IMG/VR virus record: IMGVR_UViG_3300042465_005589
Coordinates: 141,741-205,740 of that record
Length of the DNA: 64,000 nucleotides
Direction: 5' to 3' (one strand)
From: a virus
Numbering within the stretch: the stretch's first letter is position 1; each line of letters starts with the position of its first letter. The translations under genes were made by a program, and so were the position numbers. Shown in pieces: positions 20,092-42,072 of the stretch. Below the pieces are notes generated by a model. It saw only the letters and a program-made list of their open reading frames with translations, was not told the origin of the DNA and did not search any database.

Positions 20092-20399
20092 TAGTCCCTT
20101 ACCATTTTAACTTCCATACCCCAACTTGCACCATATGTATTAATATAAAGACCAAACATTGAATTAATATCATTTCTTATTTGTCTAGCCATATAACTTG
20201 GACTATGTGTCATCTTACCATCAATGAAGTCAATGTTTAGTATATTTCTAACAATATCATTCTCACCTTTTTCATTTGGTTCACCGGCTAAACGAATTAA
20301 CTTTGTTGTAAAAAACACCCTTTTAACCATAGGATATCCTTTAAGAATATATTTCTCAATTGAACTATTTAACCTATTTTCTGTGATTATTACTTTCAT
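20091..20399 (-). CDS. Hypothetical protein of the ITE family (MKVIITENRLNSSI...).
   Basis: 102-aa ORF. Confidence 0.6.
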   Translation of the reverse strand: MKVIITENRLNSSIEKYILKGYPMVKRVFFTTKLIRLAGEPNEKGENDIVRNILNIDFIDGKMTHSPSYMARQIRNDINSMFGLYINTYGASWGMEVKMVRD

Positions 20400-20992
20400 T
20401 ATGTACCTATATTATTCAATCGTGCGTTATAAACACTTCTGTAGTCAGATTTTAGTTTATCATCAGGTAATTCTTCCAATTCACTTCTTCTTTTTAATGT
20501 TTGAGTATCTAAATAATCAATCATATATTCTCTACTCAACTTATCAGTATCAACCATCTCATAACATTTACGAGGGTCATCAGTTTCCAAAGTTTCATAA
20601 ATTTCAAATTCCGGATGACCGGTCTCTTGTCCAAATTTGGGTGTGTATCTATCATCATACCATTCGGTTATCACATTATAAATAAATGTCTTTCTAACCT
20701 GTAACATTTTGGATAAAAACTCAATCTCCTCCGCATCAACATACAAATCACCTGTGAAAAATTCATCAGTTTCATCATCAATATGATATCTGGCTTCAAT
20801 AACTTTCTTACCACCTTTACACCACTCTTCAATAAAGATACCATAGTTATCTTCAGGTGGTGGAATAATTCTTTTTGAATTGGAGATTATACTCTCCATA
20901 TGTTTAATAATAATACGTTCAAAGTTCGGATTAGATTTTGTAAATCTCTTCTGAACTTCCTCTCGTAATATTTTTCTAATTAAATTTTTCAT
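20399..20992 (-). CDS. Hypothetical protein with an N-terminus (MKNLIRKILREE) of the ELIRRILRE type.
   Basis: 197-aa ORF. Confidence 0.6.
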   Translation of the reverse strand: MKNLIRKILREEVQKRFTKSNPNFERIIIKHMESIISNSKRIIPPPEDNYGIFIEEWCKGGKKVIEARYHIDDETDEFFTGDLYVDAEEIEFLSKMLQVRKTFIYNVITEWYDDRYTPKFGQETGHPEFEIYETLETDDPRKCYEMVDTDKLSREYMIDYLDTQTLKRRSELEELPDDKLKSDYRSVYNARLNNIGT

Positions 20993-20993
20993 A

Positions 20994-21323
20994 TTAGTTT
21001 AATATATGTTTATTTACGTGATGAACTTTTTCAACCGGTAACTCAAAAAACTCCGAGAACCATTTACCAACTAACCTTTTTACTTCAGGTGGAGTATAAC
21101 TAAAATATGTAATTGGTTTTACCACATCTTCACAAATATATAACGTTTTATTTCTATCACCATAAAGCATAATAACACCATCACCATTACGAAATTCGAT
21201 TTTTTTTTGTTCTCCAACACTATCTGTCATATAACTAACATCTTCATACATATTAGAGAAGGCTTTATCTAATTCTTTTTTAGCTAATTGGTCTCTTCGG
21301 CTTTCTATTATCAAAATCTTCAT
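20994..21323 (-). CDS. Hypothetical protein of the ITE family. Start moved to the internal MKILIIESRRD.
   Basis: Track ORF 20994..21338. The terminator hairpin at 21351-21369 lies just upstream and favours the internal start. Confidence 0.55.
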   Translation of the reverse strand: MKILIIESRRDQLAKKELDKAFSNMYEDVSYMTDSVGEQKKIEFRNGDGVIMLYGDRNKTLYICEDVVKPITYFSYTPPEVKRLVGKWFSEFFELPVEKVHHVNKHILN

Positions 21324-21344
21324 ATTAATAAATATCATATAAAT

Positions 21345-21369
21345 TAAAAACCCCCACGTTTGTGAGGGT
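21345..21369 (-). terminator. Intrinsic terminator. The minus strand reads CCCTCACAAACGTGGGGG followed by TTTTT.
   Basis: Hairpin plus T run after the stop of 21375..21569. Confidence 0.55.
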
Positions 21370-21374
21370 TATTA

Positions 21375-21569
21375 TTATTGGATGTTGATTTCAGTATATT
21401 CTTCATCAGCACCATCATATTCTTCCTTTGTGGATTTGAGTAAGACGTAACCATTATCAGCAACATAGTCCAACACCGCCACCTCATTCTCTGTATCAAT
21501 CTCCATAGCAATATATCCTACGAGCTCACCATCTATTGTCTCTATCTTCGCATAATTATACTCTGACAT
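21375..21569 (-). CDS. Hypothetical small acidic protein.
   Basis: 64-aa ORF followed by an intrinsic terminator. Confidence 0.45.
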   Translation of the reverse strand: MSEYNYAKIETIDGELVGYIAMEIDTENEVAVLDYVADNGYVLLKSTKEEYDGADEEYTEINIQ

Positions 21570-21904
21570 TACAATACTTCAGTCAATATTCTCCAACTCT
21601 TTAACATATTTCCATCAAGGGTTACCTCAACCGGCTTTCCTTTTAATTTGTCAACTGAATCGACCTTAGCGTCTTTGAGTAAAGATGAAATATATCTCAT
21701 AATCTCAGCGTACCAACCATCTCTGTCTTCTTCAGACCATTTACTATGTTCTGACCACTTTATTTGTTCCGCATCCCAATTTGATTTTGTATCTCCAACA
21801 CCCCAACTCCCATTACCTAGTGTAACGTGAAGCCCTAACATTGCTCCTTGATATCCACCAAGACCAAAACTTACCGACTCAATTTTTCCTAATTTCTTTT
21901 CCAT
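21569..21904 (-). CDS. Hypothetical protein.
   Basis: 111-aa ORF. Confidence 0.55.
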   Translation of the reverse strand: MEKKLGKIESVSFGLGGYQGAMLGLHVTLGNGSWGVGDTKSNWDAEQIKWSEHSKWSEEDRDGWYAEIMRYISSLLKDAKVDSVDKLKGKPVEVTLDGNMLKSWRILTEVL

Positions 21905-21906
21905 AA

Positions 21907-22515
21907 TTAATCTTTTAATCGTTCACCTGTTTCTTTAACTTTGAATTGTGATAGGTTGTTTGTACCACTACCACCTTTAACTCCCTTAACGAATTTTACC
22001 ACTCCGTTATTATATAACTTGTTTGGTGTATCAAAATACTCCCCATTGAAGACCAACATCCCCTTTGTTGTTAGTATCACTTCATAATCATTCCCCAAAT
22101 AAGTTCTGATTAATACTGTATCTTTACCAAATCCATTTGCCAAGTCAATTAATCTTGTGTCCGGAGTTGATTGTAACGATTCTCTCGATTCTTTAATCTC
22201 ATTGATGTCACACACAACTCCACCATACGTATTCATAAAGTTAATGAACTCACCGGTTAATGTGTCCTCATCATCTTTAAACCACTCACCAAATACTCTA
22301 CGACTATCCAATATGGAATGTAACATCTTCTCAACTTTATTCATATCATCAACCTTATACACAGCAATGATTGAATAACCTATTGGTGACTTGGTCCTAT
22401 TAAGTTGATATTCTCTCGATACAGGGTCTTTGGACAATCCAATTTTCTTATCCGATAATGTTAAGGTTCTACCCAACACATCGTAGTATTGACCTAAATA
22501 AATGTAACCTTCCAT
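21907..22515 (-). CDS. T5orf172 (GIY-YIG-like) domain protein.
   Basis: N-terminal MEGYIYLGQYYDVLGRTLTLSDKKIGLSKDPVSREYQLNRTKSPIGYSIIAVYKVDD...EKMLHSILDSRRVFGEWF matches the T5orf172 signature. Confidence 0.55.
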   Translation of the reverse strand: MEGYIYLGQYYDVLGRTLTLSDKKIGLSKDPVSREYQLNRTKSPIGYSIIAVYKVDDMNKVEKMLHSILDSRRVFGEWFKDDEDTLTGEFINFMNTYGGVVCDINEIKESRESLQSTPDTRLIDLANGFGKDTVLIRTYLGNDYEVILTTKGMLVFNGEYFDTPNKLYNNGVVKFVKGVKGGSGTNNLSQFKVKETGERLKD

Positions 22516-22769
22516 TACTTTCCTCTATTTTTACTTACAAAATCTATTAATTCATTTGCCAATCTCAACGCCTCATCATAAGACATATATAATCTTGCTG
22601 AACCCGGTTCTTCCACCTCAACGATGTTTAAGACAACCGAATTCTGTGCCGGACTTGGTTGGATGATTGCCTCTTGGTAACCTCCATCCATTACTAATTT
22701 AGTTTCTACCCACATATTATTCAATTGATTTATATAATTTATCTCTACGTTCCTGAGCATCTTTCTCAA
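22515..22769 (-). CDS. Hypothetical protein.
   Basis: 84-aa ORF. Confidence 0.5.
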   Translation of the reverse strand: MRKMLRNVEINYINQLNNMWVETKLVMDGGYQEAIIQPSPAQNSVVLNIVEVEEPGSARLYMSYDEALRLANELIDFVSKNRGK

Positions 22770-23133
22770 TAAGATATACTCTCATATCATTCATAGCTTT
22801 TCTTAATCGTCTTGACTTATTACTAAACGGATTATGATACACCCAAAATGGAATTTCCCACGCAAATTCACCATCAATATAAGCACTAACGTAGTCCCTA
22901 TCAGAAAAAGATAAAGTCCCTTCGTTTGTTGTTGGATATTTTGGACTATAGTAATCCACAAAACATCCATCCATTCCACACATCACTTCTCTCTCCCAAA
23001 GTTCTTTATCATTCTCTAATGACCCAATAATACGATTAACATATTTCTCGTTAATCTCCTTCATAGTTAAACCCTGAGGTTTATCACCCATTTCATTCGC
23101 TGTGTAAGAATACTCACTCATAATCGTCTTCAC
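22717..23133 (-). CDS. Hypothetical protein.
   Basis: 138-aa ORF. Confidence 0.55.
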   Translation of the reverse strand: MKTIMSEYSYTANEMGDKPQGLTMKEINEKYVNRIIGSLENDKELWEREVMCGMDGCFVDYYSPKYPTTNEGTLSFSDRDYVSAYIDGEFAWEIPFWVYHNPFSNKSRRLRKAMNDMRVYLIEKDAQERRDKLYKSIE

Positions 23134-23704
23134 TTTTTTTTATTGAAACAGGCTCTTCGTAGTCCCACTCAATTGTTTCTAATTCATTTCTCCACCCAAG
23201 AATATCTTGTTCTGTCCACATCGGAGCAAAGGTTGGTCTTGAATGGAATGGAATGTTATCTCTATCTTTCCATTTTGACAACCTCTCCTCAGCACTTTTT
23301 ATTGAAGATATTAATTTCTCACTATCTTTCCACTTACGGTATTGTTCCTCCGATTTGATGTAGTTAACCTCACCGTAGTTATTAATATCTGCATCCGGAT
23401 TGGTTGTATATACATCCACAATACCATCATAACCATCGTAATCGGCACACAAATCATTCACAGCAAGTTCATTGGTGTATTTATTCACCCAATTTTTACC
23501 ATACGACCTAATCTCACAGATATAAACAAAATCATCATTACGAGTTTGTAAATAATAACCAATCTTATTTTGAAGTTCTCTTAATTCTTCTACCGAGTAT
23601 TTTGTAAAGTCCATTTCCATAGCACAAATGTAGGCATAAAAAAAGGAACTACAAAATAGTTCCTTACTTTTTTTACTTTTTATTGAAGTCAGTATTACTA
23701 ACAT
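23114..23704 (-). CDS. Hypothetical protein.
   Basis: 196-aa ORF. Confidence 0.55.
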   Translation of the reverse strand: MLVILTSIKSKKSKELFCSSFFYAYICAMEMDFTKYSVEELRELQNKIGYYLQTRNDDFVYICEIRSYGKNWVNKYTNELAVNDLCADYDGYDGIVDVYTTNPDADINNYGEVNYIKSEEQYRKWKDSEKLISSIKSAEERLSKWKDRDNIPFHSRPTFAPMWTEQDILGWRNELETIEWDYEEPVSIKKSEDDYE

Positions 23705-24047
23705 ACTTCATGTCCCGGATTTCGTCAGGATATATTACACTCTTAAATCTTTTAGTGAATTTTTTATATATTCTTTTAATAATTTCATCTTTAATTATAT
23801 CATATAATTTATATGAACTAACCCATACACTAACCAAATCATAAAACTTTTCATCATTCACCACAACTCTATTTATGTCAGGGTAATATCTTGAAATAAC
23901 ATCACGTCTATTTCCCGGAGTCAGAAATTCCACATAACGTAAATTAATACTTCTTGTTTGAAACGAATCTCTACTATCCACACCAATACTATTAACTATG
24001 GTATCAATTATTTTTTCTAATTTCTCTTCACTAATTTTAATTTCCAT
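23673..24047 (-). CDS. Hypothetical protein with an ITE-like N-terminus (MEIKISEEKLEKII).
   Basis: 124-aa ORF. Confidence 0.55.
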   Translation of the reverse strand: MEIKISEEKLEKIIDTIVNSIGVDSRDSFQTRSINLRYVEFLTPGNRRDVISRYYPDINRVVVNDEKFYDLVSVWVSSYKLYDIIKDEIIKRIYKKFTKRFKSVIYPDEIRDMKYVSNTDFNKK

Positions 24048-24130
24048 ATCTATAAATATAACATGAGGGTAAAAATTACCCCCGTCTTTTGAACGAGGGT
24101 AATTATTTTATTTTTTTACTCTCATTAAAT

Positions 24131-24154
24131 AAAAAACCCATCCGGAGATGGGTT
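24131..24154. terminator. Hairpin AACCCATC-CGGA-GATGGGTT with A and T runs on both sides, so possibly bidirectional.
   Basis: 8-bp stem. A T run on the minus strand follows the block that ends at 24047. Confidence 0.5.
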
Positions 24155-24376
24155 TGATATTAGTACTTATCTTTGTTGTGTTTTGGTTTTCGATTGTAAG
24201 CTTTTTTACTTTTTTGAACAGATGGACGAGATGCTGCCCATATTTCTTGCATTGTGAAGGTAATTGTTTTCATAGTTTCTGTATGTGTTAAGGTTATTGT
24301 TTCATTTTGACAAGACAAAAGTAATTCTTTTAATCGAATTATACAAGTATTTATTAAAATATTTATATTTATTATT

Positions 24377-24862
24377 ATGAAAGAATTAATTAGACGGATA
24401 TTAAGAGAATATACAGAACCAAAACCTATTTTAGTATACGAAATTGTTGTAAACGATATTTTAAGTGAACAAGAGTTTATTAGACAAATATATAGAAATA
24501 ACGACAATTTAATTAATTTATATAAAAACCCACATTCTCAGGAATTCATAGGAAATAAAACCTCATTTCAAAGAGTTGACCCAGATGAGATTAACGATTC
24601 AATAATGGATATTGAACCGGCAATAATCAGTTCAGCTAAAAGAGTAATGGAAACATGTATTACAAGATGTTCAATTAATGTTATCGATAATATAGCAGGA
24701 ATTGATTACCACATGTGGTTAAATGGAACAAATAATAGGATTAAAATAATAATTAACACATCAATCAGACATCCCAACCATCTAAAATTTAGAGTTAATG
24801 AATCTCCAACAATAATAGTGGATAGGTACGGTGACATATCAACAAGAAACATATATAATTAA
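24377..24862 (+). CDS. Hypothetical protein of the MKELIRRILRE N-terminal family.
   Basis: Its N-terminus MKELIRRILREYTE is near-identical to MKELIRRILREEQEG of the minus-strand gene 41152..42072. A hairpin terminator follows it. Confidence 0.6.
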   Translation: MKELIRRILREYTEPKPILVYEIVVNDILSEQEFIRQIYRNNDNLINLYKNPHSQEFIGNKTSFQRVDPDEINDSIMDIEPAIISSAKRVMETCITRCSINVIDNIAGIDYHMWLNGTNNRIKIIINTSIRHPNHLKFRVNESPTIIVDRYGDISTRNIYN

Positions 24863-24890
24863 AAAAGGTCCCCGAAGGAACCTTTTTTTT
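24861..24890. terminator. Bidirectional hairpin AAAAAAGGTCCCCGAAGGAACCTTTTTTTTT.
   Basis: Ends the plus-strand gene 24377..24862 and, from the other side, the ORF-free unit that starts at the 25048 motif. Confidence 0.6.
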
Positions 24891-24895
24891 TATTT

Positions 24896-25035
24896 CACCA
24901 TAAGTTGAGGTTGTTAACCCGAATCATAACACTTGATTCTTAGCAGTTAGGTTTTAGGATTGCCTAACATTCCTTGTCACCATCTTTCGATGTATTTGGG
25001 TTTCCGCCCCTCTTTTTCGACATAATCTTTTATTC
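24896..25035 (-). ncRNA. Candidate small non-coding RNA of about 130 nt, running from the upstream motif to the hairpin terminator.
   Basis: No ORF longer than 19 codons. The segment is GC-richer and contains a GAGGGGCGGAAACCC segment related to the intergenic repeat head. It is bounded by the promoter-like motif at 25048-25072 and the terminator at 24861-24890. Confidence 0.25.
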
Positions 25036-25047
25036 CTTATTTGTTTG

Positions 25048-25072
25048 ACAAAGATAATACTTTTTTTAATAC
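25048..25072 (-). promoter_or_regulatory. Conserved upstream motif copy (GACAAAGATAATACTTTTTTTAATA) with no protein gene downstream on the minus strand.
   Basis: An ORF-free, GC-richer stretch of about 140 nt follows, then a hairpin terminator. Confidence 0.45.
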
Positions 25073-25167
25073 TACCAAACTTTTTTAAAGTTTTTTTTAT
25101 TTATTATCTAATTAACTTTAATGTCAGTAGTTATACGTATCATACATTAAAAAAGTTACAAAAACAT

Positions 25168-25353
25168 TCATTTCTTTTTCATTAATTCTTTAACAAATTC
25201 TTGTAGCTCAAATAGTTCAGGGTCCGTATCCAAAAGATAACGAGATTTCATATCATTATAGTTCTCTCGGATATCTGATATACACCATCCGAAGAACACA
25301 AACAATAATTTAACCTTTATTTTTATCTTTTTTAAACTCATCTTTAATAACAA
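25168..25353 (-). CDS. Hypothetical small protein with an uncertain start (TTG at 25353; ATGs further in).
   Basis: 61-aa track ORF. It overlaps, in another frame, a possible 34-aa membrane ORF. Confidence 0.3.
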   Translation of the reverse strand: MLLKMSLKKIKIKVKLLFVFFGWCISDIRENYNDMKSRYLLDTDPELFELQEFVKELMKKK

Positions 25354-25420
25354 TTAACGCAAAAACACAAACAATACCAATCAATAATGGTAGTGGTGCA
25401 GAAGGGTCTAATGTTTCCAT
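25316..25420 (-). CDS. Possible 34-aa single-pass membrane peptide (METLDPSAPLPLLIGIVCVFALIVIK...).
   Basis: Hand-translated. Its start overlaps the stop of the upstream small ORF as TAATG. Too short to be in the track. Confidence 0.25.
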
Positions 25421-25578: not shown

Positions 25579-25593
25579 TTTTGTTGGGTTTGC

Positions 25594-25914: not shown

Positions 25915-25919
25915 CTTTT

Positions 25920-28004: not shown

Positions 28005-28714
28005 TATGTCCAGTAATTATGTTCCTTTGTGAAGAACTCATCGTTATTTCTATTAAACCAAGATTTAATCATCATCTTAACCATATAGAATAAACCTTTG
28101 TTCTTAAATCGTCTTGATGTGGTATAAACAATTTTGTCCGCTACATAAAACTTATTTGGTTTTATCTTTGAACTTAAATGATAATCCTCAGCGAACTTGT
28201 CATCCGGATTAAATCCTCCCAATGAATTAAATTCCTCTAAATTAAATAACATAAATCCTCCAACCGCAAATGGTGTAGAGAATTTGGTTAAGTATTGGAT
28301 AACATCAAATGATTTATACACATAATTGTAATCACCATCGTCAGTTCTCATTTTAGTTGTTGACAAATGATAATCATTTTCTTTCATAACTTCAACCATA
28401 CAATTTAATAGGCAATATTGGTTGATGAATATGTCGGCATCCAAAAATAAAACATAAGGAGTTTTTATCTTTTTGGTTCCGTTGTTTCTGGCTTCGGCAG
28501 GAAATCCCCCTTTAACTATTTTTACATTGATATTGGTATGGTATGAACCAAGAATACATTTCTGTGTGAATCCATCGTCCGTTGAAGAATCGGCAACCAT
28601 TACATTTACACCTTTAATATTATTTTGCAAGTTTAACAATCCTAAAGTTTTCTTTATGATTAATCCCTCATTTTTACAGGGGATTACAATTGTTAAATCC
28701 TTACTTAAACTCAT
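28004..28714 (-). CDS. Glycosyltransferase family 2.
   Basis: TIVIPCKNE (N-terminal GT2 signature) and the DxD motif in LFLDADIF. Confidence 0.7.
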   Translation of the reverse strand: MSLSKDLTIVIPCKNEGLIIKKTLGLLNLQNNIKGVNVMVADSSTDDGFTQKCILGSYHTNINVKIVKGGFPAEARNNGTKKIKTPYVLFLDADIFINQYCLLNCMVEVMKENDYHLSTTKMRTDDGDYNYVYKSFDVIQYLTKFSTPFAVGGFMLFNLEEFNSLGGFNPDDKFAEDYHLSSKIKPNKFYVADKIVYTTSRRFKNKGLFYMVKMMIKSWFNRNNDEFFTKEHNYWT

Positions 28715-30405
28715 ATACTTATATCATCTAATCTATAATTAACATTTTCATTTACAACACTATCATCAGGTGATGGATACCATCTGTCATCGGGGTCAAA
28801 GTCAGGTTTATCAATATGACTTTCAGATAATAATTCATTAAATATTCCTTCTAAATCATACTTACCATCCCTATTCATATGATTTTCAAATATTTCATCA
28901 ACCCAACCTTCATCAATATCAACTAAATTAGCTAAATCGACTTGAATTTTGGCTCCGGTGTCATTAAATTCATATACATTACCATAAAACTCTAACGCCG
29001 ACTCAATTTCTTTCTGTAGAAAATCTACATAATCATTTGCGTCAGCATCATTTATCGCACCACCAATAGCATTTCTTATTTCCCAATCATCATCCACTTG
29101 TTTGATAGAATCTTCTAAATCTAAATCCTCATCTAATTCAACACCATCTCTTTCTGCCATTTTTCTAACAATATCCCACAATCTTTCTTCGGTTGGTTTG
29201 TCTACTGTATATTGGAAATAACTACCAAAATCTTCGTAACCGTCTTGATTCCACAAATCCCAAGCATCACCAGCCATTATTTCAACAAAAATACTTGTTC
29301 TTGTTTGTTTTCCGGTTGTTCTATTAGTATAAGTACGATAGGTACATCCATCAACATAATCATCAAAATCCTCAGGTTTAATTTCTAATGAGAATCCTGT
29401 TGGTAATGGTTCCATTTCAATAATACCCATCTTATCTAACAATCGTTGCATAGGTCTTGACGAGAACAACTCCGGTCTATTTTGATACAATTCTTTGATT
29501 GTTTGTTCCGGTAAGTCAGACAATTTAAAATCCTGTTCTGATGCGTACTCCGTTCCAAATCCTTGAATTAAATAATCATCTTCTTCACCTTCACCACCTA
29601 ACACGTAGAATAACGGTTGAATGTATTGATGGTATTCATCTTTTGGTTTTGAGTTCTTAACACCCTTCAACTGATACATAATACCATCCTCACCAATTGC
29701 CGCAGTTAGAACTGATTTGTTTAATTTATATTTGTTGTTAATCGGAATTACTTGTCTTAATGAATAAAGATATCCATAAGAACTTCTTCCACAATGCCCC
29801 ATTCTATTACATTCTTCTGATGAGTTTTTTGTATTCAAATCAGCCCAATAAAACCCATTTCCATTTTCATCAGTGAAATCTAATATAGTTGGGTTTTCTT
29901 CCTTATAATTAATATCACCCTGACCAATTTCCAAACTATCGTGCCATTGTTTTGATTTACGATGTAATTCATTCAAATTTAACTCTTTATTTTCACCTAA
30001 ATTACCATTCAAACCAACTCTAATCCAATCCATTATTGATGTAATATCTTGTCTATGTGAATTAATAGCTAAATTATTGTTCATATTTTTAATCGTAGCT
30101 CTTTTATATTCTTTATCATCGTCAAATTCCGGAAGGATTGATACTAAACGTTTAGAATAAAAATCAATAAATTTATTACCCATCCAAACAGATAAAGGAC
30201 CACATAGTTTATCCAATAGGTCAGCATTCTCCTCATTAAACCCAATCTTATCCATTAAGATTTGTTTCTTGGATGCCTCCGTAATGATTTGTCTTATACT
30301 CTCAATTAATTTCATACCTATATAAATATAACGAAAACAAAAAACCCCCAATGAGGAGGTTTTTTTATACTGTAAATTTGAAATGATTAGTTTCGTCAAA
30401 ATCAA
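28711..30405 (-). CDS. Hypothetical large acidic protein.
   Basis: 564-aa ORF. Confidence 0.65.
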   Translation of the reverse strand: MILTKLIISNLQYKKTSSLGVFCFRYIYIGMKLIESIRQIITEASKKQILMDKIGFNEENADLLDKLCGPLSVWMGNKFIDFYSKRLVSILPEFDDDKEYKRATIKNMNNNLAINSHRQDITSIMDWIRVGLNGNLGENKELNLNELHRKSKQWHDSLEIGQGDINYKEENPTILDFTDENGNGFYWADLNTKNSSEECNRMGHCGRSSYGYLYSLRQVIPINNKYKLNKSVLTAAIGEDGIMYQLKGVKNSKPKDEYHQYIQPLFYVLGGEGEEDDYLIQGFGTEYASEQDFKLSDLPEQTIKELYQNRPELFSSRPMQRLLDKMGIIEMEPLPTGFSLEIKPEDFDDYVDGCTYRTYTNRTTGKQTRTSIFVEIMAGDAWDLWNQDGYEDFGSYFQYTVDKPTEERLWDIVRKMAERDGVELDEDLDLEDSIKQVDDDWEIRNAIGGAINDADANDYVDFLQKEIESALEFYGNVYEFNDTGAKIQVDLANLVDIDEGWVDEIFENHMNRDGKYDLEGIFNELLSESHIDKPDFDPDDRWYPSPDDSVVNENVNYRLDDISI

Positions 30406-31564: not shown

Positions 31565-32422
31565 TTATTTTCTATTTAATAATATTCCCTGAGCCGAACC
31601 AAACACATTATTATGTCCGTATTCTGATGTACCATTCGTAGCTCTTATTCTCTCGGTCTCCGCTCTATACAACTCTAACAATTTAGGTTGAGATAAAATT
31701 TCCTTTGTTTTAGCGTCGTATAGTGCTGCCTCATAGTTACCTTTCGCATTTGCCACTTTCTTAAGTGCCGTTTGTTCCGCTTGTTTTGTTTGAGATATAA
31801 TGGTTGCCGTCTCCTGAAGAACCGCAATCTTTCTCTCAATAGCCGCCTTATACGAAGCCGGTAATGCCATTTTAAGGATTGCGATGTTATTCAATGTAAA
31901 CCCTTCTTTCTCTAACGCCACAGTCAAGGTCTTAGTCACGTTCGACTCATACACATTTCTATGTTGTAATAAACTATCCGATGCGAACGATACAGCATTT
32001 TCCAATAATTCCTTTCTAACAATCGTTCTTACTCTTGAATTAATTAAATCCTCCATACCCACTCGATACTTAATAAATAAGTCAGCCGCTCTCGCTCTCT
32101 GTAATTGTAAGTTAATCGACACATCTAACCCGAATGTCGCACCATCCGCAGATGTTACATCAATATGTTCATCCGTTGGGGAATCTTCATTTGAATCTGC
32201 TGACCATACTTTGTGTTGAACCGATGTTGGATACATAAACACATCCTGTGTTGGTGGGAAATAAAAGATAAACCCCGAAGCCATTTCAATATTGGGAATA
32301 CCCTTGTTAGTCCCAATTTGGTCCACCACTAACGCAACCTCAGCCGAGTCAGCAATCTTACAAGAAGCTACTCCAAAAATAAACAATAACACTACACCTA
32401 CTACTACTAAAATTCTTTTCAT
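31565..32422 (-). CDS. SPFH/band-7 (HflK/C-like, prohibitin-like) protein with a lipobox.
   Basis: N-terminal MKRILVVVGVVLLFIFGVASC (lipobox), an SPFH core, and an Ala/Glu/Lys-rich coiled-coil tail. The promoter motif lies 38 nt upstream. Confidence 0.6.
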   Translation of the reverse strand: MKRILVVVGVVLLFIFGVASCKIADSAEVALVVDQIGTNKGIPNIEMASGFIFYFPPTQDVFMYPTSVQHKVWSADSNEDSPTDEHIDVTSADGATFGLDVSINLQLQRARAADLFIKYRVGMEDLINSRVRTIVRKELLENAVSFASDSLLQHRNVYESNVTKTLTVALEKEGFTLNNIAILKMALPASYKAAIERKIAVLQETATIISQTKQAEQTALKKVANAKGNYEAALYDAKTKEILSQPKLLELYRAETERIRATNGTSEYGHNNVFGSAQGILLNRK

Positions 32423-34345: not shown

Positions 34346-35470
34346 TTAAGGGTTGTAATGTCTTTGATATGATTTAAATCTTTGTTGACTAACATCATCA
34401 GTATCAATTATATTAAAATACTTCTCAACATTTGGATTGTTAAGTAACTTAAGAAAATAATTATTTACTTGACCTCTAGAGATAGATAATCTTTTTAATT
34501 TGGTATATCGTCTGATAGATAATTCTTTAGACATTTTTTTATACAACCAATACGGTATTTTAATAAATTCAAACCCTTCTTTACCTTCAACCGGTCCTAA
34601 CATTTCTATTTGAGATTTTGGTAGTTTAGCAAAATGAATGTCAATGTTATATGATTCCGCACCATCCATAAATAATCCTGAGCGGTCTAATTGTTCGTAA
34701 ATATTTAAAACATCAATCATCGTCCCACTGTCACCAACTATCATATAAGCACCTATCATCGTTTTTTCTTCTGGAAGATAAACTAACTTATTAAAGTCAG
34801 GTGTTGTATCAATTGGTTCTTCTTGTTCATTAATTCTTGAAGACAATGGTGGGTTTAATAAAAACTTATCATTAACCCAACGTCTTAATTCATTCTCAAC
34901 AAAATATTCAGGTACTTCCTCATCGTCCGGTTTTTCAGTCGCCAACTCAGCAATGTGTTTAGCAAATTTAACTTTATATTTATCATCCAACATGGTCATT
35001 AAACCATCTGAAATAAAGAATATCTTAGAGAAGGGGTCATCTAAATGTATGTCGCCTTCCGCAATTTGAAATGATTTAAGAATTGCTCTTCCCCAAAAAG
35101 TTTTATAACTTTCTGTTTCAGTTAAACTTGGTTTCAATATCTTATTGATAGCTCTAACAACACTACCAACAACACCCGGAATCATAAGTTGTGGTAAAAA
35201 CCAAGGCAATAATCTAATGGTCGCCTTAACACCTCCCTCACCAATGTGTTTGAATATTCTTTTCTTTGTCGCACTTTCAACAATCGCCCGTAACTGACCA
35301 AAGGTAATTTTACCCTGAGCATGACAAAACTTTTCACTATCACAAATATTTTTGACTGTAGTTTTTGAAGGTTCTACATCAATATTCTCAGTTAATTTCG
35401 TATATTGCGGTCCTGTAATCTTAATTTTCATAATTATAAATATCTTGAATATATTTATTGTTAAACTCAT
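34346..35470 (-). CDS. Hypothetical protein.
   Basis: 374-aa ORF. Confidence 0.6.
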   Translation of the reverse strand: MSLTINIFKIFIIMKIKITGPQYTKLTENIDVEPSKTTVKNICDSEKFCHAQGKITFGQLRAIVESATKKRIFKHIGEGGVKATIRLLPWFLPQLMIPGVVGSVVRAINKILKPSLTETESYKTFWGRAILKSFQIAEGDIHLDDPFSKIFFISDGLMTMLDDKYKVKFAKHIAELATEKPDDEEVPEYFVENELRRWVNDKFLLNPPLSSRINEQEEPIDTTPDFNKLVYLPEEKTMIGAYMIVGDSGTMIDVLNIYEQLDRSGLFMDGAESYNIDIHFAKLPKSQIEMLGPVEGKEGFEFIKIPYWLYKKMSKELSIRRYTKLKRLSISRGQVNNYFLKLLNNPNVEKYFNIIDTDDVSQQRFKSYQRHYNP

Positions 35471-35473: not shown

Positions 35474-36286
35474 ATGGAAAAATACAAATTAATCAATTTA
35501 GTTAAAAAAACCAGTAGGTCATTCAGGAATCAAAGTCCGACCGGTATATATAGATTAATAATTACTGACAACAGTTACGAACCATTATCTTATGTACTAA
35601 AGGCTAAAGATTTGGTAATCTTTTCTCTATTAGTACCACGTTTTCATATGGGTTCCGATATCGACGAAGATTATGATAGAATTGAATTTAATATGTTCTC
35701 AGTTGAATTAGTTGAAGTTTATGATTCTGAACCTGAATTAGATTGTCCCGAATGTAATGACGGACATGTTAATTGTGATAATTGTGATGGTACAGGAGAG
35801 ATAGAATGTGATAGATGTGACAATACAGGTCAAGTTGATTGTTCTTCTTGTGGTGGTGATGGTGTTGATGATGAAGGTGAAGAATGTTCTGAATGTGAAG
35901 GCATGGGTAAAGAAAGTTGCAATTATTGTTACGGTAGTGGATACGAATCTTGTAATTATTGTGGTGGAGATGGAGATAATATTTGCCCAACTTGTGATGG
36001 TGAGGGTAAAAAATATTCTAAAGAAAAATCTGAAGTAATTTATTCTGATTTTATTTCTTGGAGTGGTCGTTGGAAATTATTTTTTTCCAATATTAAACAG
36101 GAAGAACAAATAGACCGTGAAGATTCTGATAATTTTCTTAACAATAACCAAACATTATTATTGAAAACTTATTATGAGATGTCTGAAGAATATGAAGGTT
36201 ATGAAAATGGTGACACTTTTTTATTTAAAATGAATGAAAAACCTGAAATAATAACTAGAGATAAAGAAGGTATTGTCAGAATTTAA
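35474..36286 (+). CDS. Cys-rich protein with repeated CxxCxGxG (DnaJ-type zinc finger) motifs.
   Basis: CPECNDGHVNCDNCDGTGEIECDRCDNTGQVDCSSCGGDG...CSECEGMGKESCNYCYGSGYESCNYCGGDGDNICPTCDGEG. Confidence 0.6.
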   Translation: MEKYKLINLVKKTSRSFRNQSPTGIYRLIITDNSYEPLSYVLKAKDLVIFSLLVPRFHMGSDIDEDYDRIEFNMFSVELVEVYDSEPELDCPECNDGHVNCDNCDGTGEIECDRCDNTGQVDCSSCGGDGVDDEGEECSECEGMGKESCNYCYGSGYESCNYCGGDGDNICPTCDGEGKKYSKEKSEVIYSDFISWSGRWKLFFSNIKQEEQIDREDSDNFLNNNQTLLLKTYYEMSEEYEGYENGDTFLFKMNEKPEIITRDKEGIVRI

Positions 36287-36307
36287 TAATAAACTATATT
36301 TATAATT

Positions 36308-36979
36308 ATGGTATCAGAAAGATTAATAAAATTATATTACGACAAACTTAAAAAACCCACAAATATGTTTGGGTTATTATTACACCCATTCATGTCTAAT
36401 AATAAAATAAAATGGGAATATGAAAATCCTAACGATGTTTCTTTTGCAACTACCGTAGTTGAAGGTCATCTTGAGGAGATGTTACACGACTTTTTACAAT
36501 TAGCTGGTATAACAAATGGGTTTAACCCTAATTCAGGACTTGATTGGTCACAACTATCTAAAGATTATTGTAAATTAACTAAATCAGATGTTTATATCAA
36601 TAAAGAAATTAGAAATAAAATAAATAGGTCATTTAATAATCTTAAAAAGATTGGATTATATGATAATGGAGAACTTTTAACCTCCGAATGTTCTATAAAA
36701 AATTGGTCTCTTGAATATCTTGATAAAGAAGCTCTTGGATTTCATTTAGATTTAGAATTATATAATCCTAAAATTGAAGGTAAAGAGGTTGATAATGATA
36801 CATTACAAGATTATATTCAAAGTTTTATATATGATGATGATGCTCACGAACAAGAATATGAAATCATAGGAAATGTATCGTCAATAGTTCGTGATGAAAA
36901 AAATCTTTTTGATAATGATTATATGTTTGTCCAACCAATAATTGGTTATTACGATTCTTTTGGAAATGGTTTAACTTAA
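36308..36979 (+). CDS. Hypothetical protein.
   Basis: 223-aa ORF. Confidence 0.55.
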   Translation: MVSERLIKLYYDKLKKPTNMFGLLLHPFMSNNKIKWEYENPNDVSFATTVVEGHLEEMLHDFLQLAGITNGFNPNSGLDWSQLSKDYCKLTKSDVYINKEIRNKINRSFNNLKKIGLYDNGELLTSECSIKNWSLEYLDKEALGFHLDLELYNPKIEGKEVDNDTLQDYIQSFIYDDDAHEQEYEIIGNVSSIVRDEKNLFDNDYMFVQPIIGYYDSFGNGLT

Positions 36980-37338
36980 TCAAAAGTTAAATCAACACAC
37001 ACCATAGGTAAGTATTGTTCTATATTATTTAATATTTTATCTTCAATATCATCTTGAACCCAACTTGGTAAATCCCCCATACCGTATTCTTCCCAATCAC
37101 CTTCAAACCCTACCATAACATCCACATCAAGATAAACAGTACCACTATAGTTACAACCAGGTTCAGATTCTTTTGAGAAAATCACAACACGTTTTACTTT
37201 AAACTTAACCTTCCAATCAGCGTAATCATCCTCTGAATGACTGTATGGCATACTATATTGACCTTCCATAGTATTATCACTATTAACAATTTTGTTAATT
37301 AATACCGCAATTTTTTCAATCTTTTCTTGTTTAGTCAT
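36976..37338 (-). CDS. Hypothetical protein.
   Basis: 120-aa ORF. Confidence 0.55.
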   Translation of the reverse strand: MTKQEKIEKIAVLINKIVNSDNTMEGQYSMPYSHSEDDYADWKVKFKVKRVVIFSKESEPGCNYSGTVYLDVDVMVGFEGDWEEYGMGDLPSWVQDDIEDKILNNIEQYLPMVCVDLTFD

Positions 37339-38372
37339 TATATATAATCAGGGAAAAACTCATTTATATATTTATCTACTAAACGACTATCAGGATAATC
37401 CGGTATTCTAAAGTCAAGCCAAGGCTCATCACCATTATCCATAAAAGTATTCATCATATTTAACCAAGTACTAACATAGTCAATGTTATTAGCATAATAT
37501 CCCCAATTACTAGTGTCCGCAACAAATTTCTTAATAGAATTTGATACTTCGTTTGGATTAAATTTAATGTAGTAGAACTCAGTAAGTTTGGTAGAATCAC
37601 CATACAAAGGAACTGCCTCCCACTTAGCTGATTTCATATCAAAAAAAGTTTCCAACTCATCTATAGCCATATTATATATTTCTGTTTCATGAGCAGTATT
37701 ATAAGCATTACTATGAATACTATATAAGTCACCTGTTAAGTCAGGTAAATAATCATTGTCAAGCAAGTATTGAAAAGATTCTTCATCACCAATAACATCA
37801 CTAACATTCTCCGGTGTTAAATAAAAAATACCCTCATCGTCAGCATAATTACGAAATAAATCAGGTGTCTCATCATCAACTTCTATTTTCCAATTAGTTA
37901 ACACATCTAACATATGTTGTTTTAATCGTTCCATGTTCTCGGGGTTCAATTCTTCAATAACATCTCTATGTATATCATCGGTAGTATTGTCATGATATTC
38001 CCAATTATCTTCACCAAATATAGATTTAACATAATCTCTCGCACTTAAATCACGACCACCACTATAAAATAATTCGGATAAGTCCTCTCTATCTTGAACT
38101 CTTAAATAATAAACCCCATCTTTAGGTATTATATCCGATAGTTGAGCAACACAATACTCTAAAGTTTTTTTATCATTTAAAACGTTTAAAAGATAATTTA
38201 ATATTTCTAACTGATAATCACTTACATCATCATCAAAAGGGTCGACATATTCTAATAAATTTTGTCTATGGAAAAACTTTAAAATATTTCCCACATTATC
38301 AAACATATCAATAAGATGGTCAATATCACCACCGTTAAAATCATTAACATATTTTAAATATTTTTCATTCAT
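37338..38372 (-). CDS. Hypothetical acidic protein.
   Basis: 344-aa ORF. Confidence 0.6.
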   Translation of the reverse strand: MNEKYLKYVNDFNGGDIDHLIDMFDNVGNILKFFHRQNLLEYVDPFDDDVSDYQLEILNYLLNVLNDKKTLEYCVAQLSDIIPKDGVYYLRVQDREDLSELFYSGGRDLSARDYVKSIFGEDNWEYHDNTTDDIHRDVIEELNPENMERLKQHMLDVLTNWKIEVDDETPDLFRNYADDEGIFYLTPENVSDVIGDEESFQYLLDNDYLPDLTGDLYSIHSNAYNTAHETEIYNMAIDELETFFDMKSAKWEAVPLYGDSTKLTEFYYIKFNPNEVSNSIKKFVADTSNWGYYANNIDYVSTWLNMMNTFMDNGDEPWLDFRIPDYPDSRLVDKYINEFFPDYI

Positions 38373-38374
38373 AA

Positions 38375-38905
38375 TTAATTCATTTGGAAATATCGACTAG
38401 AGTATTTAGGTCTGTCAAAAATAATGTTTATACCTGTCTGTGATGTAATGTTGTCCTTAAAATAATCATTGATACCCCAATTAACTTCATCTTCAACTTC
38501 CCATCCGTAATCATCATTGTCTAAAGCATCCTCTAATGTCTTGTGGTCACCACCTACATCAACATGACCACCCAAATCATCAACCTTAATTTTAACAACA
38601 ACATTTGGTTCTGAGCTATCTAAATACCAATTACCAATACCAATAACCTCAAAGAAAAAATTATAACCACCAAAATTATCTATATGGTGTGGGTTCTGAA
38701 GTAATAAGGTTTTAGCAAGTTCTTTCGATTCTTTTTCACCTCTCCACTCAATTAAGTATTTGTAGGCTTGGTTATAAGTAATGTCACTATCACTATTATC
38801 TAACCCAAAAAAAGAAATGAAATTCTTATCTACCTTACCAGCTGTTTTGTCCCAATACTTAAAAAGTATATTTTTGTATTTAGATTCAGTTATTATTAAT
38901 TTCAT
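38375..38905 (-). CDS. Hypothetical protein of the ITE family (MKLIITESKYKNIL...).
   Basis: 176-aa ORF. Confidence 0.6.
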   Translation of the reverse strand: MKLIITESKYKNILFKYWDKTAGKVDKNFISFFGLDNSDSDITYNQAYKYLIEWRGEKESKELAKTLLLQNPHHIDNFGGYNFFFEVIGIGNWYLDSSEPNVVVKIKVDDLGGHVDVGGDHKTLEDALDNDDYGWEVEDEVNWGINDYFKDNITSQTGINIIFDRPKYSSRYFQMN

Positions 38906-38955
38906 TTATTATTTTGTTTCTTAAATTATAATTATAAATAGTTAAAACTACAGAA

Positions 38956-39306
38956 ATGGCACACCCAATAATTCACGCGAAATCATCCGCCAAAAAGTTT
39001 GGTGGAATATGGGAAGATTATATCCACTTACATAACTGGCTTGACCACACAAAATCGTGGTATGGACATTCATTACATAGAATGTTCAGACATCACAGCG
39101 AGGGTATATTTGAAATGGAAGAGAAGTTTGGTCCAATGTTTACAAATAGTGACGGAAAGGTTGTCTATACTCGTTATGTGGGAGAACAACACGTTAAAGA
39201 GGATTGTTATAACTACATTCCAACAGCTCGTGAATGGATAATAGCTTTGGATTCCAAAGAAAAACCTATGTGGATGATTCGAACTATGGAAATTAACGTA
39301 GATTAA
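38956..39306 (+). CDS. Hypothetical His-rich protein.
   Basis: 116-aa ORF, preferred over the nested ORFs 38999..39241 and 39073..39309. Confidence 0.5.
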   Translation: MAHPIIHAKSSAKKFGGIWEDYIHLHNWLDHTKSWYGHSLHRMFRHHSEGIFEMEEKFGPMFTNSDGKVVYTRYVGEQHVKEDCYNYIPTAREWIIALDSKEKPMWMIRTMEINVD

Positions 39307-39328
39307 CATATTTATAATAAAAAGATTT

Positions 39329-40030
39329 ATGACACCACAAATAACAGAAGAACAATTAAAATCATTAAAACTTTTCGCATACTACTGTCGTTCACACGGT
39401 GCCGAAACTGTTCACAAAGAATATTATATAGAAAATTGTAATTTAGATTGGGAAGAAGAAAATTTTCAATCACCACAAATACGTACAAGTATCGAAAGTT
39501 ACTCTAAAATAGATGAAGTTCTTAATGAAATTATTGAAACTAACGAACTAATTGAAAATTCTACTACAGATTGTGACTTCAGAGGTCAGTTAACCATTGA
39601 AATTGATTGTGTTGAAAGAATACTAACTACGGACGCAATGGAGTGGCAATTTTCAAGTAATTTTAATGATTTTTCCAAAGACTTAACCGAGATTGCTGAA
39701 GATTATACTGAAGAAATATATAATGAAGTTTTAAGATTATTTGAACAAATTGGTGAAGATGGTGATGCTGAGTTAACATTTAATGGTGGTGGAGATAGTG
39801 GAGCTTTAGATGATTATATTAACATCAATGGGTCCACTGAGAACATTCCAAAACTTATTGAAGATATGTCGTATCAATGGTTAGAAGAAACCGGTTTAGA
39901 TTGGTTTAACAATGAAGGTGGTCAAGGTAGATTTGTGTTTAGCCCAAAGGATAATCAAATTATATTAGAAGTCGAAACAAACTACGAAGAAGATGTTAAT
40001 GTTCCTTTAAATTTTAAAATACAATTTTAA
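39329..40030 (+). CDS. Hypothetical acidic protein.
   Basis: 233-aa ORF followed by an intrinsic terminator at 40041-40067. Confidence 0.6.
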   Translation: MTPQITEEQLKSLKLFAYYCRSHGAETVHKEYYIENCNLDWEEENFQSPQIRTSIESYSKIDEVLNEIIETNELIENSTTDCDFRGQLTIEIDCVERILTTDAMEWQFSSNFNDFSKDLTEIAEDYTEEIYNEVLRLFEQIGEDGDAELTFNGGGDSGALDDYININGSTENIPKLIEDMSYQWLEETGLDWFNNEGGQGRFVFSPKDNQIILEVETNYEEDVNVPLNFKIQF

Positions 40031-40035
40031 AATAC

Positions 40036-40067
40036 AAAAACCCCCCGATTTCTCGAGGGGTTTTTTT
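40036..40067 (+). terminator. Intrinsic terminator AAAAACCCCCCGATTTCTCGAGGGGTTTTTTT.
   Basis: 8-bp stem with one mismatch plus a T7 run after the stop of 39329..40030. Confidence 0.65.
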
Positions 40068-40256
40068 ATAGTCAGGTTGGAAGTTCAATAAGTAAATCAA
40101 AAAGAGTTTTAAGTTTTGACAAATTAATTTTGAACTGCTGAGTGTTGAGGTTTGAGTACTTCATCATCATCAAAACGTCGACGACTTTCATAATGAGTTT
40201 GTAGGTAATACGGAATAGTCCATATATATTACATTATATCCCTTCCGGACACTGAA

Positions 40257-40694
40257 CTATATTTCGGTGATTTGGTTATGGTAATCCAAAATATCTTGAA
40301 TCTCTTCAATTTGTCCTTCCATATGTTTAACCATCTCGTCTCTCTCAACAATTGAGATTTCCGTTTCTTTCACAGCAGGTGTCTCACGATTTCTTGAGTA
40401 GTAATCTTGGACAATACCCTCATTACAATCCAAGTTTTTAATTCTCGCAATCATAGATTTCAATTCCGACAATCTAAAAATGTGTTGATACACCAAATCA
40501 TTTGCTCTGTGGATTTTAGTTTTAAGTTCCACTAACTCATTACTTTTTTGGTTAAGTAATTCCATTGATTCTTTAGCCGAATATGGTCTAACATTCCCAA
40601 CCTCAACTGAGTTGTATGTCGCCACTCTAGTGTGTAAATCTAAAATCTCTTTAACCAATCGGTTTTTCTCTTTTAAAGCTTTCTTTATGTTCAT
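40257..40694 (-). CDS. Coiled-coil protein.
   Basis: 145-aa ORF with heptad-like composition. Confidence 0.55.
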   Translation of the reverse strand: MNIKKALKEKNRLVKEILDLHTRVATYNSVEVGNVRPYSAKESMELLNQKSNELVELKTKIHRANDLVYQHIFRLSELKSMIARIKNLDCNEGIVQDYYSRNRETPAVKETEISIVERDEMVKHMEGQIEEIQDILDYHNQITEI

Positions 40695-40753
40695 AATAAA
40701 ATTGTTTTATTGTTTGTTTGTATAGTATAATTATTTTTTATTAAGAAGTCAAA

Positions 40754-41089
40754 TTACCACACCTCATATCCAAAACTTTTATACTCACTACCCCGTAAAT
40801 CTTTTATATTCTCATTTATTGGTTCTAAAATAAATTTTTCAAAATCGTCCGGTTTCATCAATGCCGCCTCAATAAAACCAAAAACAGGTGCCATTTGATT
40901 TATGTAAGAAACAAGGTCATTGTCATTGTAAGATTCAGGTATCAAGTTTGTTAGAACAAGGAAGTACTCCTTTGTAGGATATCCGTAATGTAAATAATAA
41001 AAACGATATTCAGGATGTCTCCTCAAGTGAGGAAACTCCTTATATATCTCTTTTAATAATAATTGTAAAGGTTTTGGATACGGATTCAT
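40754..41089 (-). CDS. Hypothetical protein.
   Basis: 111-aa ORF. Confidence 0.5.
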   Translation of the reverse strand: MNPYPKPLQLLLKEIYKEFPHLRRHPEYRFYYLHYGYPTKEYFLVLTNLIPESYNDNDLVSYINQMAPVFGFIEAALMKPDDFEKFILEPINENIKDLRGSEYKSFGYEVW

Positions 41090-41151
41090 AGTACAAAGAT
41101 AATACTTAATCCCATATAAACAAAAAAAAGGAACTAAATGTTCCTTTTTTT

Positions 41152-42072
41152 TTAATCTAATAATTCTATCTCAGTGTTATCATCCGTTAAGTATTTCGGA
41201 TAAGTTCTTAGTATGTCTTGTTTAATTGTATTTGTAATATTGTTCAATAACTCAGGATTGTCTCTAAAATTGGAATCCGGTATCATTTTCCTGTCAACCA
41301 TTTTACCAGCTTTAAGAACTTTGACAGATATTTTAATTTTACCATCAACATCCTCAATGTCTTTAATCATAAAATTAACTCTGTGAGCATTATCCCCCCA
41401 ACCTCCACTGATTAATTTTGATTGATTAGTTATTTTATCTTTATCTTTTACAAAGTTTGAAACTCTACTAGATTTAACCGTTTCAATGTTACGACTTCCT
41501 CGAATAAGACCTTCCATCTCATCTTTGGTAATACTCATAACATTTGCATTTAAGTTTGAATCAAATTTAACAGGGTTAACCTGACTCATTTGTTTTCTTG
41601 TAGAACTTGAATACGTTTCTAATGTTCTGTACCATTGGTCATTAATAAATAAGAACACTGGATACCACCCATATGATGTAATAACATAATACCAATCATT
41701 ATTATTATTTACATTCCACTGACCTTCAATATTTGAACCCTTAAACGGCATTCTAGCCGACGCATATTCATAAGCCGTATTATTAGTAACTTTTCTCTGT
41801 TTGAATTGTCTGAAATCCTTGAAATTCTCGTTTGTTAAATTTTCATAATCCCCTTCCGGTCTGAAGTTAGCCGTGTATACTTCATAATAAAAATGAGAGT
41901 CGTTTGGTGACATTCCAAGTACCGGTAAAATAGACCTTAAAAATTTTAAAAATTCAGGTTGAGTCTTAGTTTCCCTTTTATGTTTGTCAATATACTTAAA
42001 TAACATAATTTCCTTTTTAGTTAAAGGACCTTCTTGTTCTTCTCGTAGTATACGTCTAATTAGTTCTTTCAT
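41152..42072 (-). CDS. Hypothetical protein of the MKELIRRILRE family.
   Basis: 306-aa ORF with the conserved N-terminus. Confidence 0.6.
   Translation of the reverse strand: MKELIRRILREEQEGPLTKKEIMLFKYIDKHKRETKTQPEFLKFLRSILPVLGMSPNDSHFYYEVYTANFRPEGDYENLTNENFKDFRQFKQRKVTNNTAYEYASARMPFKGSNIEGQWNVNNNNDWYYVITSYGWYPVFLFINDQWYRTLETYSSSTRKQMSQVNPVKFDSNLNANVMSITKDEMEGLIRGSRNIETVKSSRVSNFVKDKDKITNQSKLISGGWGDNAHRVNFMIKDIEDVDGKIKISVKVLKAGKMVDRKMIPDSNFRDNPELLNNITNTIKQDILRTYPKYLTDDNTEIELLD

Follow-up and report, generated by a model that had tools for sequence, protein, structure and literature searches.

A short N-terminal leader shared by unrelated proteins of a large uncultured phage: a possible counterpart of the T4 capsid-targeting sequence

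We analyzed a window of 64,000 nucleotides (nt) with approximately 31% G+C (positions 141,741 to 205,740 of IMG/VR virus record IMGVR_UViG_3300042465_005589), part of a metagenomic contig of approximately 315–318 kb, in which three genes encode proteins that open with nearly the same 11-residue peptide, MKELIRRILRE, ahead of dissimilar bodies. This leader is conserved at the protein level, restricted to the N-terminus, structurally detached from the cargo that follows, and interchangeable between cargoes. Our tentative reading, to which we give slightly less than an even chance, is that the leader is a portable N-terminal address tag that may, by analogy with the capsid-targeting sequence (CTS) of phage T4, combine a docking with a cleavage signal. 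We favor a CTS-like role because the two peptides belong to the same length class and end in (I/L)-x-Glu, the genetics are those of one tag on many cargoes, and the matching protease family is present in the lineage.

One leader on three unrelated proteins

The three genes lie at 41152..42072 on the minus strand, 24377..24862 on the plus strand, and 20399..20992 on the minus strand, and they encode proteins of 306, 161, and 197 amino acids (aa), as an earlier sequence-only reading had described; the interval 20399-42072 is a mere envelope around three separate genes. Their N-termini are MKELIRRILREE, MKELIRRILREY, and MKNLIRKILREE, respectively, with the leader in the forms MKELIRRILRE and MKNLIRKILRE. 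Codons 1–12 occupy 42037..42072 (minus strand) in the 306-aa gene, 24377..24412 (plus strand) in the 161-aa gene, and 20957..20992 (minus strand) in the 197-aa gene. All three match the back-translated pattern M-K-[EDNK]-L-I-R-x-I-L-R-E, with further support from an AlphaFold helix at residues 2–12 in the first and from 120 orthologs in the third. These were the only matches in the window, compared with 0.00 expected from 100 dinucleotide-preserving shuffles, which rules out a chance origin of the repeat. The ATG is genuine in every case, with an in-frame stop 2–22 codons upstream, and two of the three genes abut their upstream gene. As a helix, the leader has a hydrophobic moment of 0.76–0.88, within the top 1–3% of its own shuffles. 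It had been called a basic amphipathic peptide; the amphipathic part stands, while basic applies to the core (K2, R6, R/K7, R10), and with E3, E11, and E12 the net charge is only near +1.

Past residue 14, the similarity ends. Pairwise BLASTP comparisons of the bodies gave E values above 0.3 throughout, and HHalign comparisons of leaderless family profiles gave probabilities of just 0.2–0.4% between them, which bears out the claim that the bodies differ and refutes full-length paralogy. It is extremely improbable that the three proteins are ordinary diverged paralogs in which the leader is the last recognizable remnant of a common ancestor. Their N-terminal 16–31 residues do align by BLASTP at E = 2e-4 to 2e-2, but beyond the N-terminus there is no significant similarity, the two modeled bodies have different secondary-structure orders, and, as described below, leaders are swapped or absent within one cargo family while one cargo can stand behind different leaders. 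We therefore reject ordinary paralogy.

The AlphaFold models have a mean pLDDT of 92.7 for the 306-aa protein and 89.1 for the 197-aa protein, with the body of each above 90. In the former, a helix spans residues 2–12 (mean pLDDT of 61 for residues 1–10) and coil follows at residues 13–18; in the latter, the helix spans residues 2–16 at pLDDT 51–61, and residues 14–19 fall below 50. Both models thus consist of a low-confidence N-terminal helix, a disordered linker, and a confident body. The linker and cargo of the 306-aa protein (41152..42036, minus strand) comprise a helical N-domain, a DUF8033-fold center, and a C-terminal beta domain; the center resembles DUF8033 phage proteins (probability 1.0, TM 0.6–0.75), a fold that is common in phages, and at the 50% cluster level the family of this protein numbers 331 representatives. 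Those of the 197-aa protein (20399..20956, minus strand) are modeled as an alpha+beta fold. The cargo of the 161-aa protein (24413..24862, plus strand) has been assigned to no family and has orthologs with 79.5% identity at L024, L048, and L053 (L-numbers denote other viral contigs or loci), and the longer form of its leader, MKELIRQILREYTEPK, also heads unrelated proteins of 213–218 aa at L010 and L045. Pfam and PHROGs scans of the three proteins returned nothing significant, and a fold search against solved structures (PDB) found no match for either the 306-aa or the 197-aa cargo. Among deposited phages, we found no near-identical DNA for the window and no homolog of the 306-aa protein.

Distribution of the leader and selection on the peptide

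Scanning IMG/VR with the back-translated leader yielded 63 further open reading frames (ORFs), of 58–635 aa, on 48 viral contigs, ten of which exceed 200 kb. Together with the window's three, the 66 ORFs fall into 24 unrelated body clusters. A scan without the ATG requirement gave 63 matches, of which 57 stand directly after an ATG. Two more are N-terminal variants, one with a TTG start and one reading MADD-KELIRKILRE; the remaining four are degenerate or doubtful, with no clear internal copy among them.

Leu4 is encoded by five different codons, Ile5 by three, and Arg6 and Arg10 by three to five, and because synonymous codons vary freely, it is the peptide that is under selection. ILRE is followed in most cases by Glu or Asp, and sequence entropy climbs sharply past residue 12. 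The same picture emerges from orthologs of the 197-aa protein that were gathered without reference to the leader (n = 120). All of them begin MK[EDN]LI[KR][KRQ][IV]LREE, with L9, R10, and E11 invariant, and residues 1–10 are the most conserved block of the family, with an entropy of 0.22 bits versus 0.45–1.15 elsewhere. Among orthologs down to 22% identity, pairwise leader identity is 67% versus 31–35% for the body.

These data also bear on whether conservation of the leader is a by-product of expression or recombination. A ATATTTAT or TATTTAT[AT] box stands exactly 4–6 nt before the ATG of 13 window genes, ten of which carry a leader, and most of the boxes lie just after a G/C-rich hairpin with a T-run; of the motifs upstream of window genes, TATTTAT[AT] is the most prominent (23 of 116 starts). 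Judged from the sequence, such spacing implies that the transcripts would be nearly leaderless. The conserved residues might then be the first codons of a mobile terminator-promoter-start cassette resembling the PeSL cassettes of T4-type phages, or a start optimized for near-leaderless mRNAs. PeSL cassettes shuffle genes in the hyperplastic regions of T4-type phages, the internal-protein locus among them (PMC4122927), and the hairpin, promoter-like box, and start codon before the first gene of many leader-gene runs resemble them; the codons of the leader are also A/T-rich. PeSLs, however, are DNA elements that end at the start codon, whereas the leader is conserved inside the coding sequence and at the amino-acid level. 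We consider the by-product explanation improbable, and disfavor it because the amino acids are fixed while synonymous sites vary freely. Moreover, the three window genes are unrelated in their upstream DNA, and two lack the box and are coupled to their upstream gene; we found no conserved DNA element that explains the repeat, as the cassette precedes only some of the genes. Many other A/T-rich peptides would suit translation as well, and the leader remains the most conserved block across the 120 orthologs of the 197-aa protein.

Exchange of leaders among cargoes

Approximately 25 of the roughly 105 window ORFs, in tandem runs, start with one of three leader types: MKELIRRILRE, a type containing ITE, and a type beginning MNL. 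Cargoes pass between these types. At L016, a protein with the MKELIRRILRE leader matches, over residues 18–150, residues 20–149 of the ITE-leader protein encoded at window 19480-20091 (49% identity, E = 3e-35). Proteins with the MKELIRRILRE leader likewise match the ITE-leader protein of window 5256-5600 (L020 and L031) and the MNL-leader protein of window 15713-16171 (L007 and L015).

Exchange is also seen within a single cargo family. In 62 full-length orthologs of the 306-aa protein (21–45% identical), the N-terminal extension before the motif (P)LSxxEIxLFKYLN is variable and may be of the MKELIRRILRE type, of the ITE type (MKYILTESQ...), MNL-like, or missing. The same cargo domain also occurs internally in longer proteins, where it follows an acidic linker with no leader before it in nine of ten cases; several such fusions (P0159, P0179, and P0163) do bear an ITE-type leader, but only at the N-terminus of the whole protein. 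The leader can be exchanged and is not required for the fold. With 24 unrelated bodies behind one leader, cargoes behind different leaders, and leaders swapped among orthologs, the leader-plus-cargo modularity proposed by the sequence-only reading is upheld. That reading had placed the modularity across this genome region, which is correct for the window but too narrow as a limit, since the architecture runs through a whole uncultured phage lineage.

The other two leader types have features of their own. The ITE type, MK[IV]IITE followed by S/N, Q/R, and a hydrophobic residue, is found on approximately 18 window genes, in tandem and often translationally coupled, in the stretches 4583-7416, 9966-10633, 18762-20399, 20994-21323, 23673-24047, 34346-35431, and 38375-38905. 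Four of these genes (18762..20399, minus strand) lie directly downstream of the 197-aa gene and include 19480-20091, whose body recurs behind the MKELIRRILRE leader at L016. Residues 147–203 of the 19480-20091 protein form a separate C-terminal domain of approximately 55 residues that is 69–74% identical to stretches of Pelagibacter phage HTVC008M and of two uncultured phage genomes of more than 630 kb; the rest of the protein is unmatched in all of these. Four MNL-leader genes occupy 15713..18130 (minus strand), and their N-terminal approximately 48 residues are homologous to the MKELIRRILRE-leader proteins of L007 and L015. In this stretch, a conserved helical segment (..IK.LI.K.GL..A....GG) comes after the MNL leader. 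The segment recurs in other phages (L007, L015, L011:5395-5544, and L034), behind an MKELIRRILRE leader or internally in proteins of 536–594 aa. A GIY-YIG protein at L034 has an internal copy, NIIKKVLKEE, before an MNL-type helical segment at about residue 320. A 534-aa gene at 28711..30315 (minus strand) carries a leader, MKLIESIRQIITEA, that is a hybrid between the MNL, ITE, and MKELIRRILRE types (amphipathic moment of 0.60).

Comparison with the T4 capsid-targeting sequence

The internal proteins of T-even phages are diverse defense proteins whose common feature is the CTS alone; in T4, this peptide loads the internal proteins, as well as foreign proteins fused to it, into the scaffolding core, after which gp21 removes it (PMC3012670; PMC5694885; PMC9958956). 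The T4 genome gives the sequences MKTYQEFIAE|A for IPII and IPIII, MAKINELLRE|S for gp24, and MLKEQLIAE|A for gp22, propeptides of 9–10 residues ending in (I/L)-x-E. The leader resembles these and the propeptides of IPI and Alt as an N-terminal peptide of approximately ten residues whose end, I8-L9-R10-E11, fits the prohead-protease site (I/L)-x-Glu, albeit with an atypical E or D at P1'. The CTS, too, stays conserved on accessory proteins that evolve fast, are otherwise unrelated, and sit together in hyperplastic regions (PMC3012670; PMC5694885; PMC9958956), and a related leader-bearing contig encodes a Peptidase_S77, an acidic scaffold, and Gp23.

A mechanism along these lines would start from a short amphipathic helix, carried by a flexible acidic linker and attachable to almost any soluble protein, with selection for what the peptide binds and not for the fold behind it. 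Through the helix, a freshly synthesized protein would dock onto the prohead scaffolding core and be enclosed as the shell forms; cleavage by a protease of the gp21 family behind the terminal (I/L)-x-Glu (ILRE|E) would then release the mature cargo, to be delivered with the DNA into the next host. The ITE and MNL leaders would serve as alternatives to this tag. Docking to the core, cleavage, packaging, and injection of the tagged proteins are all inferred here. The cargoes are soluble proteins, among them a GIY-YIG nuclease, a PAP2 phosphatase, and a SprT protease, for each of which a role as an injected effector is plausible.

The giant phages phiKZ, 201phi2-1, and SPN3US offer a second comparison. 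Their genomes are likewise of jumbo size, and identical short N-termini occur on diverged proteins, such as MANFVKSKLARESVE on SPN3US gp53 and gp54 (PMC5694885). These N-termini end at a Glu-specific prohead-protease motif, and a CTS-like role has been proposed for them (PMC5694885). However, the tagged proteins of giant phages are paralogs (34% identical), their propeptides are mostly longer than 100 residues, and the motif is A/S/G-x-E, whereas here a leader of 11–16 residues stands before unrelated bodies.

A T4-type head system exists in a phage carrying the tag. The leader-bearing contig L055 encodes a Peptidase_S77 (E = 2.5e-28) that is 34% identical to T4 gp21, a very acidic scaffold protein, and a Gp23 capsid protein (E = 2.2e-68), with one leader gene and one leader-like SprT gene between protease and scaffold. 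The major capsid protein (MCP) clade to which it belongs has more than 8,000 homologs on contigs of up to 464 kb, and the nearest cultured MCPs are 35–45% identical. At the position of the T4 gp23 cleavage site (FLTE|A), the MCPs of this clade retain L-[NT]-E|[SAT], and clade scaffolds begin M..KKSIIEE|ALLE|A. In loci chosen by the MCP alone, leader genes are rare, at approximately 10 of 1,112 ORFs, and lie either co-directionally just after the MCP gene or inside the head module. We also observed that the scaffold start M..KKSIIEE|ALLE resembles the ITE leader. The SprT-like zinc metalloprotease gene of L055 (L055:8711-9187; HELIHAAHG), which is flanked by the prohead protease and scaffold genes but runs on the opposite strand, has the leader-like N-terminus MKAIIKKILREY, and a SprT-like gene occupies the same position on L069 and L071.

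Several observations weigh against a CTS-like role. There is no sequence homology to the T4 CTS MKTYQEFIAE, with which M1, K2, and the terminal Glu alone coincide, and the T4 peptide is weakly amphipathic and acidic, whereas MKELIRRILRE is strongly amphipathic and basic. The residue after the putative cut is Glu or Asp, not the small residue (Ala, Ser, or Thr) of the T4 sites and of the clade's MCP and scaffold sites. The tagged share of the window ORFs, about 25 genes in 64 kb, is far above T4's handful of internal proteins, and at least three interchangeable leader classes coexist in one genome. Some orthologs of the 306-aa cargo lack any leader. The upstream motif that dominates in the window is TATTTAT[AT] and not the T4 late motif TATAAATA, which is not enriched upstream of window starts; a T4 late promoter for the leader genes is rejected. 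An enrichment of (I/L)-x-E near N-termini was dropped as independent evidence, as its peaks at positions 7 and 11 restate the ITE and MKELIRRILRE leaders. Finally, no T4-type head module was found on the window's own contig of approximately 315 kb in searches that covered parts of it: none of 29 T4 core proteins had a tblastn match in the window or its flanks, and no head genes were seen in the 10 kb beyond each window edge.

Three wider searches placed no MCP on the window's contig among the matches that they listed. In a protein search with the MCP, none of the best 120 of more than 8,000 homologs lay on the 318,164-bp contig; the other two were an MCP-based locus search, whose listing omitted even the contig of the query, and a DNA scan with an invariant MCP peptide, which has at least 120 matches. 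A contig of 175,743 bp considered as a window-syntenic candidate proved to be a different assembly. The named matches of a tblastn search with the T4 CTS peptide include enterobacterial-type phages.

The window's contig and the T4-type head clade are linked indirectly: they are similar in genome size and G+C content, and their gene pools overlap. The T4-type head locus L137 encodes a DUF6915 and DUF6878 pair (L137:9977-11040) that matches window 38956-40030 at 72% identity for DUF6915 and 24% for DUF6878, which is evidence of gene exchange or common descent with the clade.

Other partners for the leader

A helix of this kind might instead dock to another shared partner, such as a host hub (RNA polymerase, the ribosome, or DnaK), the phage DnaJ, or an intracellular phage compartment, with the three leader types serving as different addresses. 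An amphipathic helix, a poorly conserved linker, and unrelated cargo are what define encapsulation peptides (PMC4594438), which are sufficient to address foreign proteins (PMC4594438). The leader shares with those of PduP, PduD, EutC, and CcmN a short amphipathic helix, a poorly conserved flexible linker, unrelated cargo, and a hydrophobic face at i/i+1/i+4/i+5, and the spacing of L4, I5, I8, and L9 equals that of PduP L9, I10, I13, and L14. Further points for docking elsewhere are that the window encodes a DnaJ and a DnaJ-type zinc-finger protein and that three leader classes coexist in one genome. On the other hand, amphipathic helices in general would resemble encapsulation peptides in this way, no candidate receptor emerged, and the proteins scanned included none for a shell or compartment; approximately 50 window and flank proteins, as well as the precomputed Pfam hits, contain no BMC domain. 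Encapsulation peptides also differ in having 15–20 residues, in standing at either terminus, and in not being conserved in sequence between enzymes, whereas the leader is nearly invariant and strictly N-terminal. We regard docking to such a partner as a minor but real possibility.

Alternatively, the leader may be a recognition tag for a phage Clp machine, either as an N-terminal degron that sets when accessory proteins are removed or as a docking peptide for a Clp adaptor. A ClpP-family gene (L151:1335-2069) lies approximately 8–9 kb beyond window position 1, on a contig that shares that window end, and 53%-identical ClpP copies occur in the leader-bearing loci L019 and L032. Five leader-bearing loci encode a ClpC/ClpA-type double-AAA+ unfoldase, in all five of which a gene for a 58-aa zinc-ribbon protein with the leader lies co-directionally and directly or closely downstream. 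An exposed terminal helix on a disordered linker is what unfoldases engage, and the large tagged share of accessory genes suits programmed turnover better than packaging. Yet the loci were selected for the leader, so neighboring Clp genes may be incidental, and the ClpP family also serves as a head-maturation protease. A Clp tag would leave the terminal (I/L)-x-E and the leader genes inside or beside head modules unexplained, and we know of no precedent for phage-wide degrons. On balance, we regard Clp recognition as a serious rival, and the main one, to a CTS-like role, although its probability is low. The five unfoldase genes are at L027:706-2879, L056:3248-5487, L033, L046:426-2438, and L047, and in two cases the zinc-ribbon gene is immediately adjacent; the ClpC-like ATPase and the zinc-ribbon protein may be an adaptor or substrate pair. 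PHROGs groups the L151 ClpP with head-maturation proteases, yet no portal or MCP gene is adjacent to it.

Implications

The principle of a CTS or encapsulation peptide is already known; what appears to be new is the scale, the presence of three interchangeable tag classes, and the occurrence in an abundant, uncultured lineage of the T4 superfamily with jumbo genomes. We found no paper describing the MKELIRRILRE, ITE, or MNL leaders. If the leader is a packaging signal, it marks, from sequence alone, the proteins that these abundant uncultured phages inject. The T4 counterparts are anti-defense and host-takeover factors, and most of the cargoes here are without a known fold. A packaging signal would also carry the CTS principle beyond one small locus of enterobacterial phages into a large environmental lineage that has several classes of tag, and would provide a short, defined peptide for loading foreign proteins into other capsids. 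If the leader is instead a Clp tag, it would represent the first such system of programmed turnover in a phage.

A broader conjecture, which we consider speculative and rather unlikely in its full form, is that MKELIRRILRE, MK-IIITE, and MNL-ENI-RI constitute a general protein-addressing code in this uncultured T4-superfamily lineage, including its genomes of approximately 300 kb. Each class would lead to its own destination or fate (the prohead core, the Clp machine, or another hub), and new genes would gain function by acquiring a tag, which would make the sorting system broader than the T4 CTS.

Other features of the window

The boxes upstream of window genes include those at 2656-2663, 6340-6347, 7421-7428, 10638-10645, 18135-18142, 21328-21335, 24052-24059, 24365-24372, 30322-30329, and 35436-35443, among others. 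Before the 161-aa gene, two overlapping, promoter-like ATATTTAT boxes lie at 24359..24372 (plus strand), and 4 nt separate the end of the second from the ATG. On a larger scale, one N-terminal module is also joined to different C-terminal parts in the adjacent genes 7628-8434 and 8436-9116, whose N-terminal 116 residues (MKNI.[VL].PT...) are 61% identical before the two proteins diverge.

The window carries a chaperone and nucleoid toolkit that is unusual for a phage. It comprises a full DnaJ with a J domain, CxxCxGxG repeats, and a C-terminal domain (59251-60168), a protein with DnaJ-type CxxC repeats (35474-36286), an SPFH/Band-7 protein (31565-32422), and an Hc1-like histone-like protein (61807-61983). 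Beyond position 64000, the flank also encodes a sigma-70-type factor (L149:5337-6137) and an SbcC-like protein (L149:2328-4694). Lastly, a 224-aa Cys-rich protein encoded at 44983-45657 has homologs (30–43% identical) directly downstream of the MCP gene in many T4-type loci (L069-L148). This is the position of the homing endonuclease segD beside T4 gene 23, and because the positions match, the protein is probably a mobile endonuclease.

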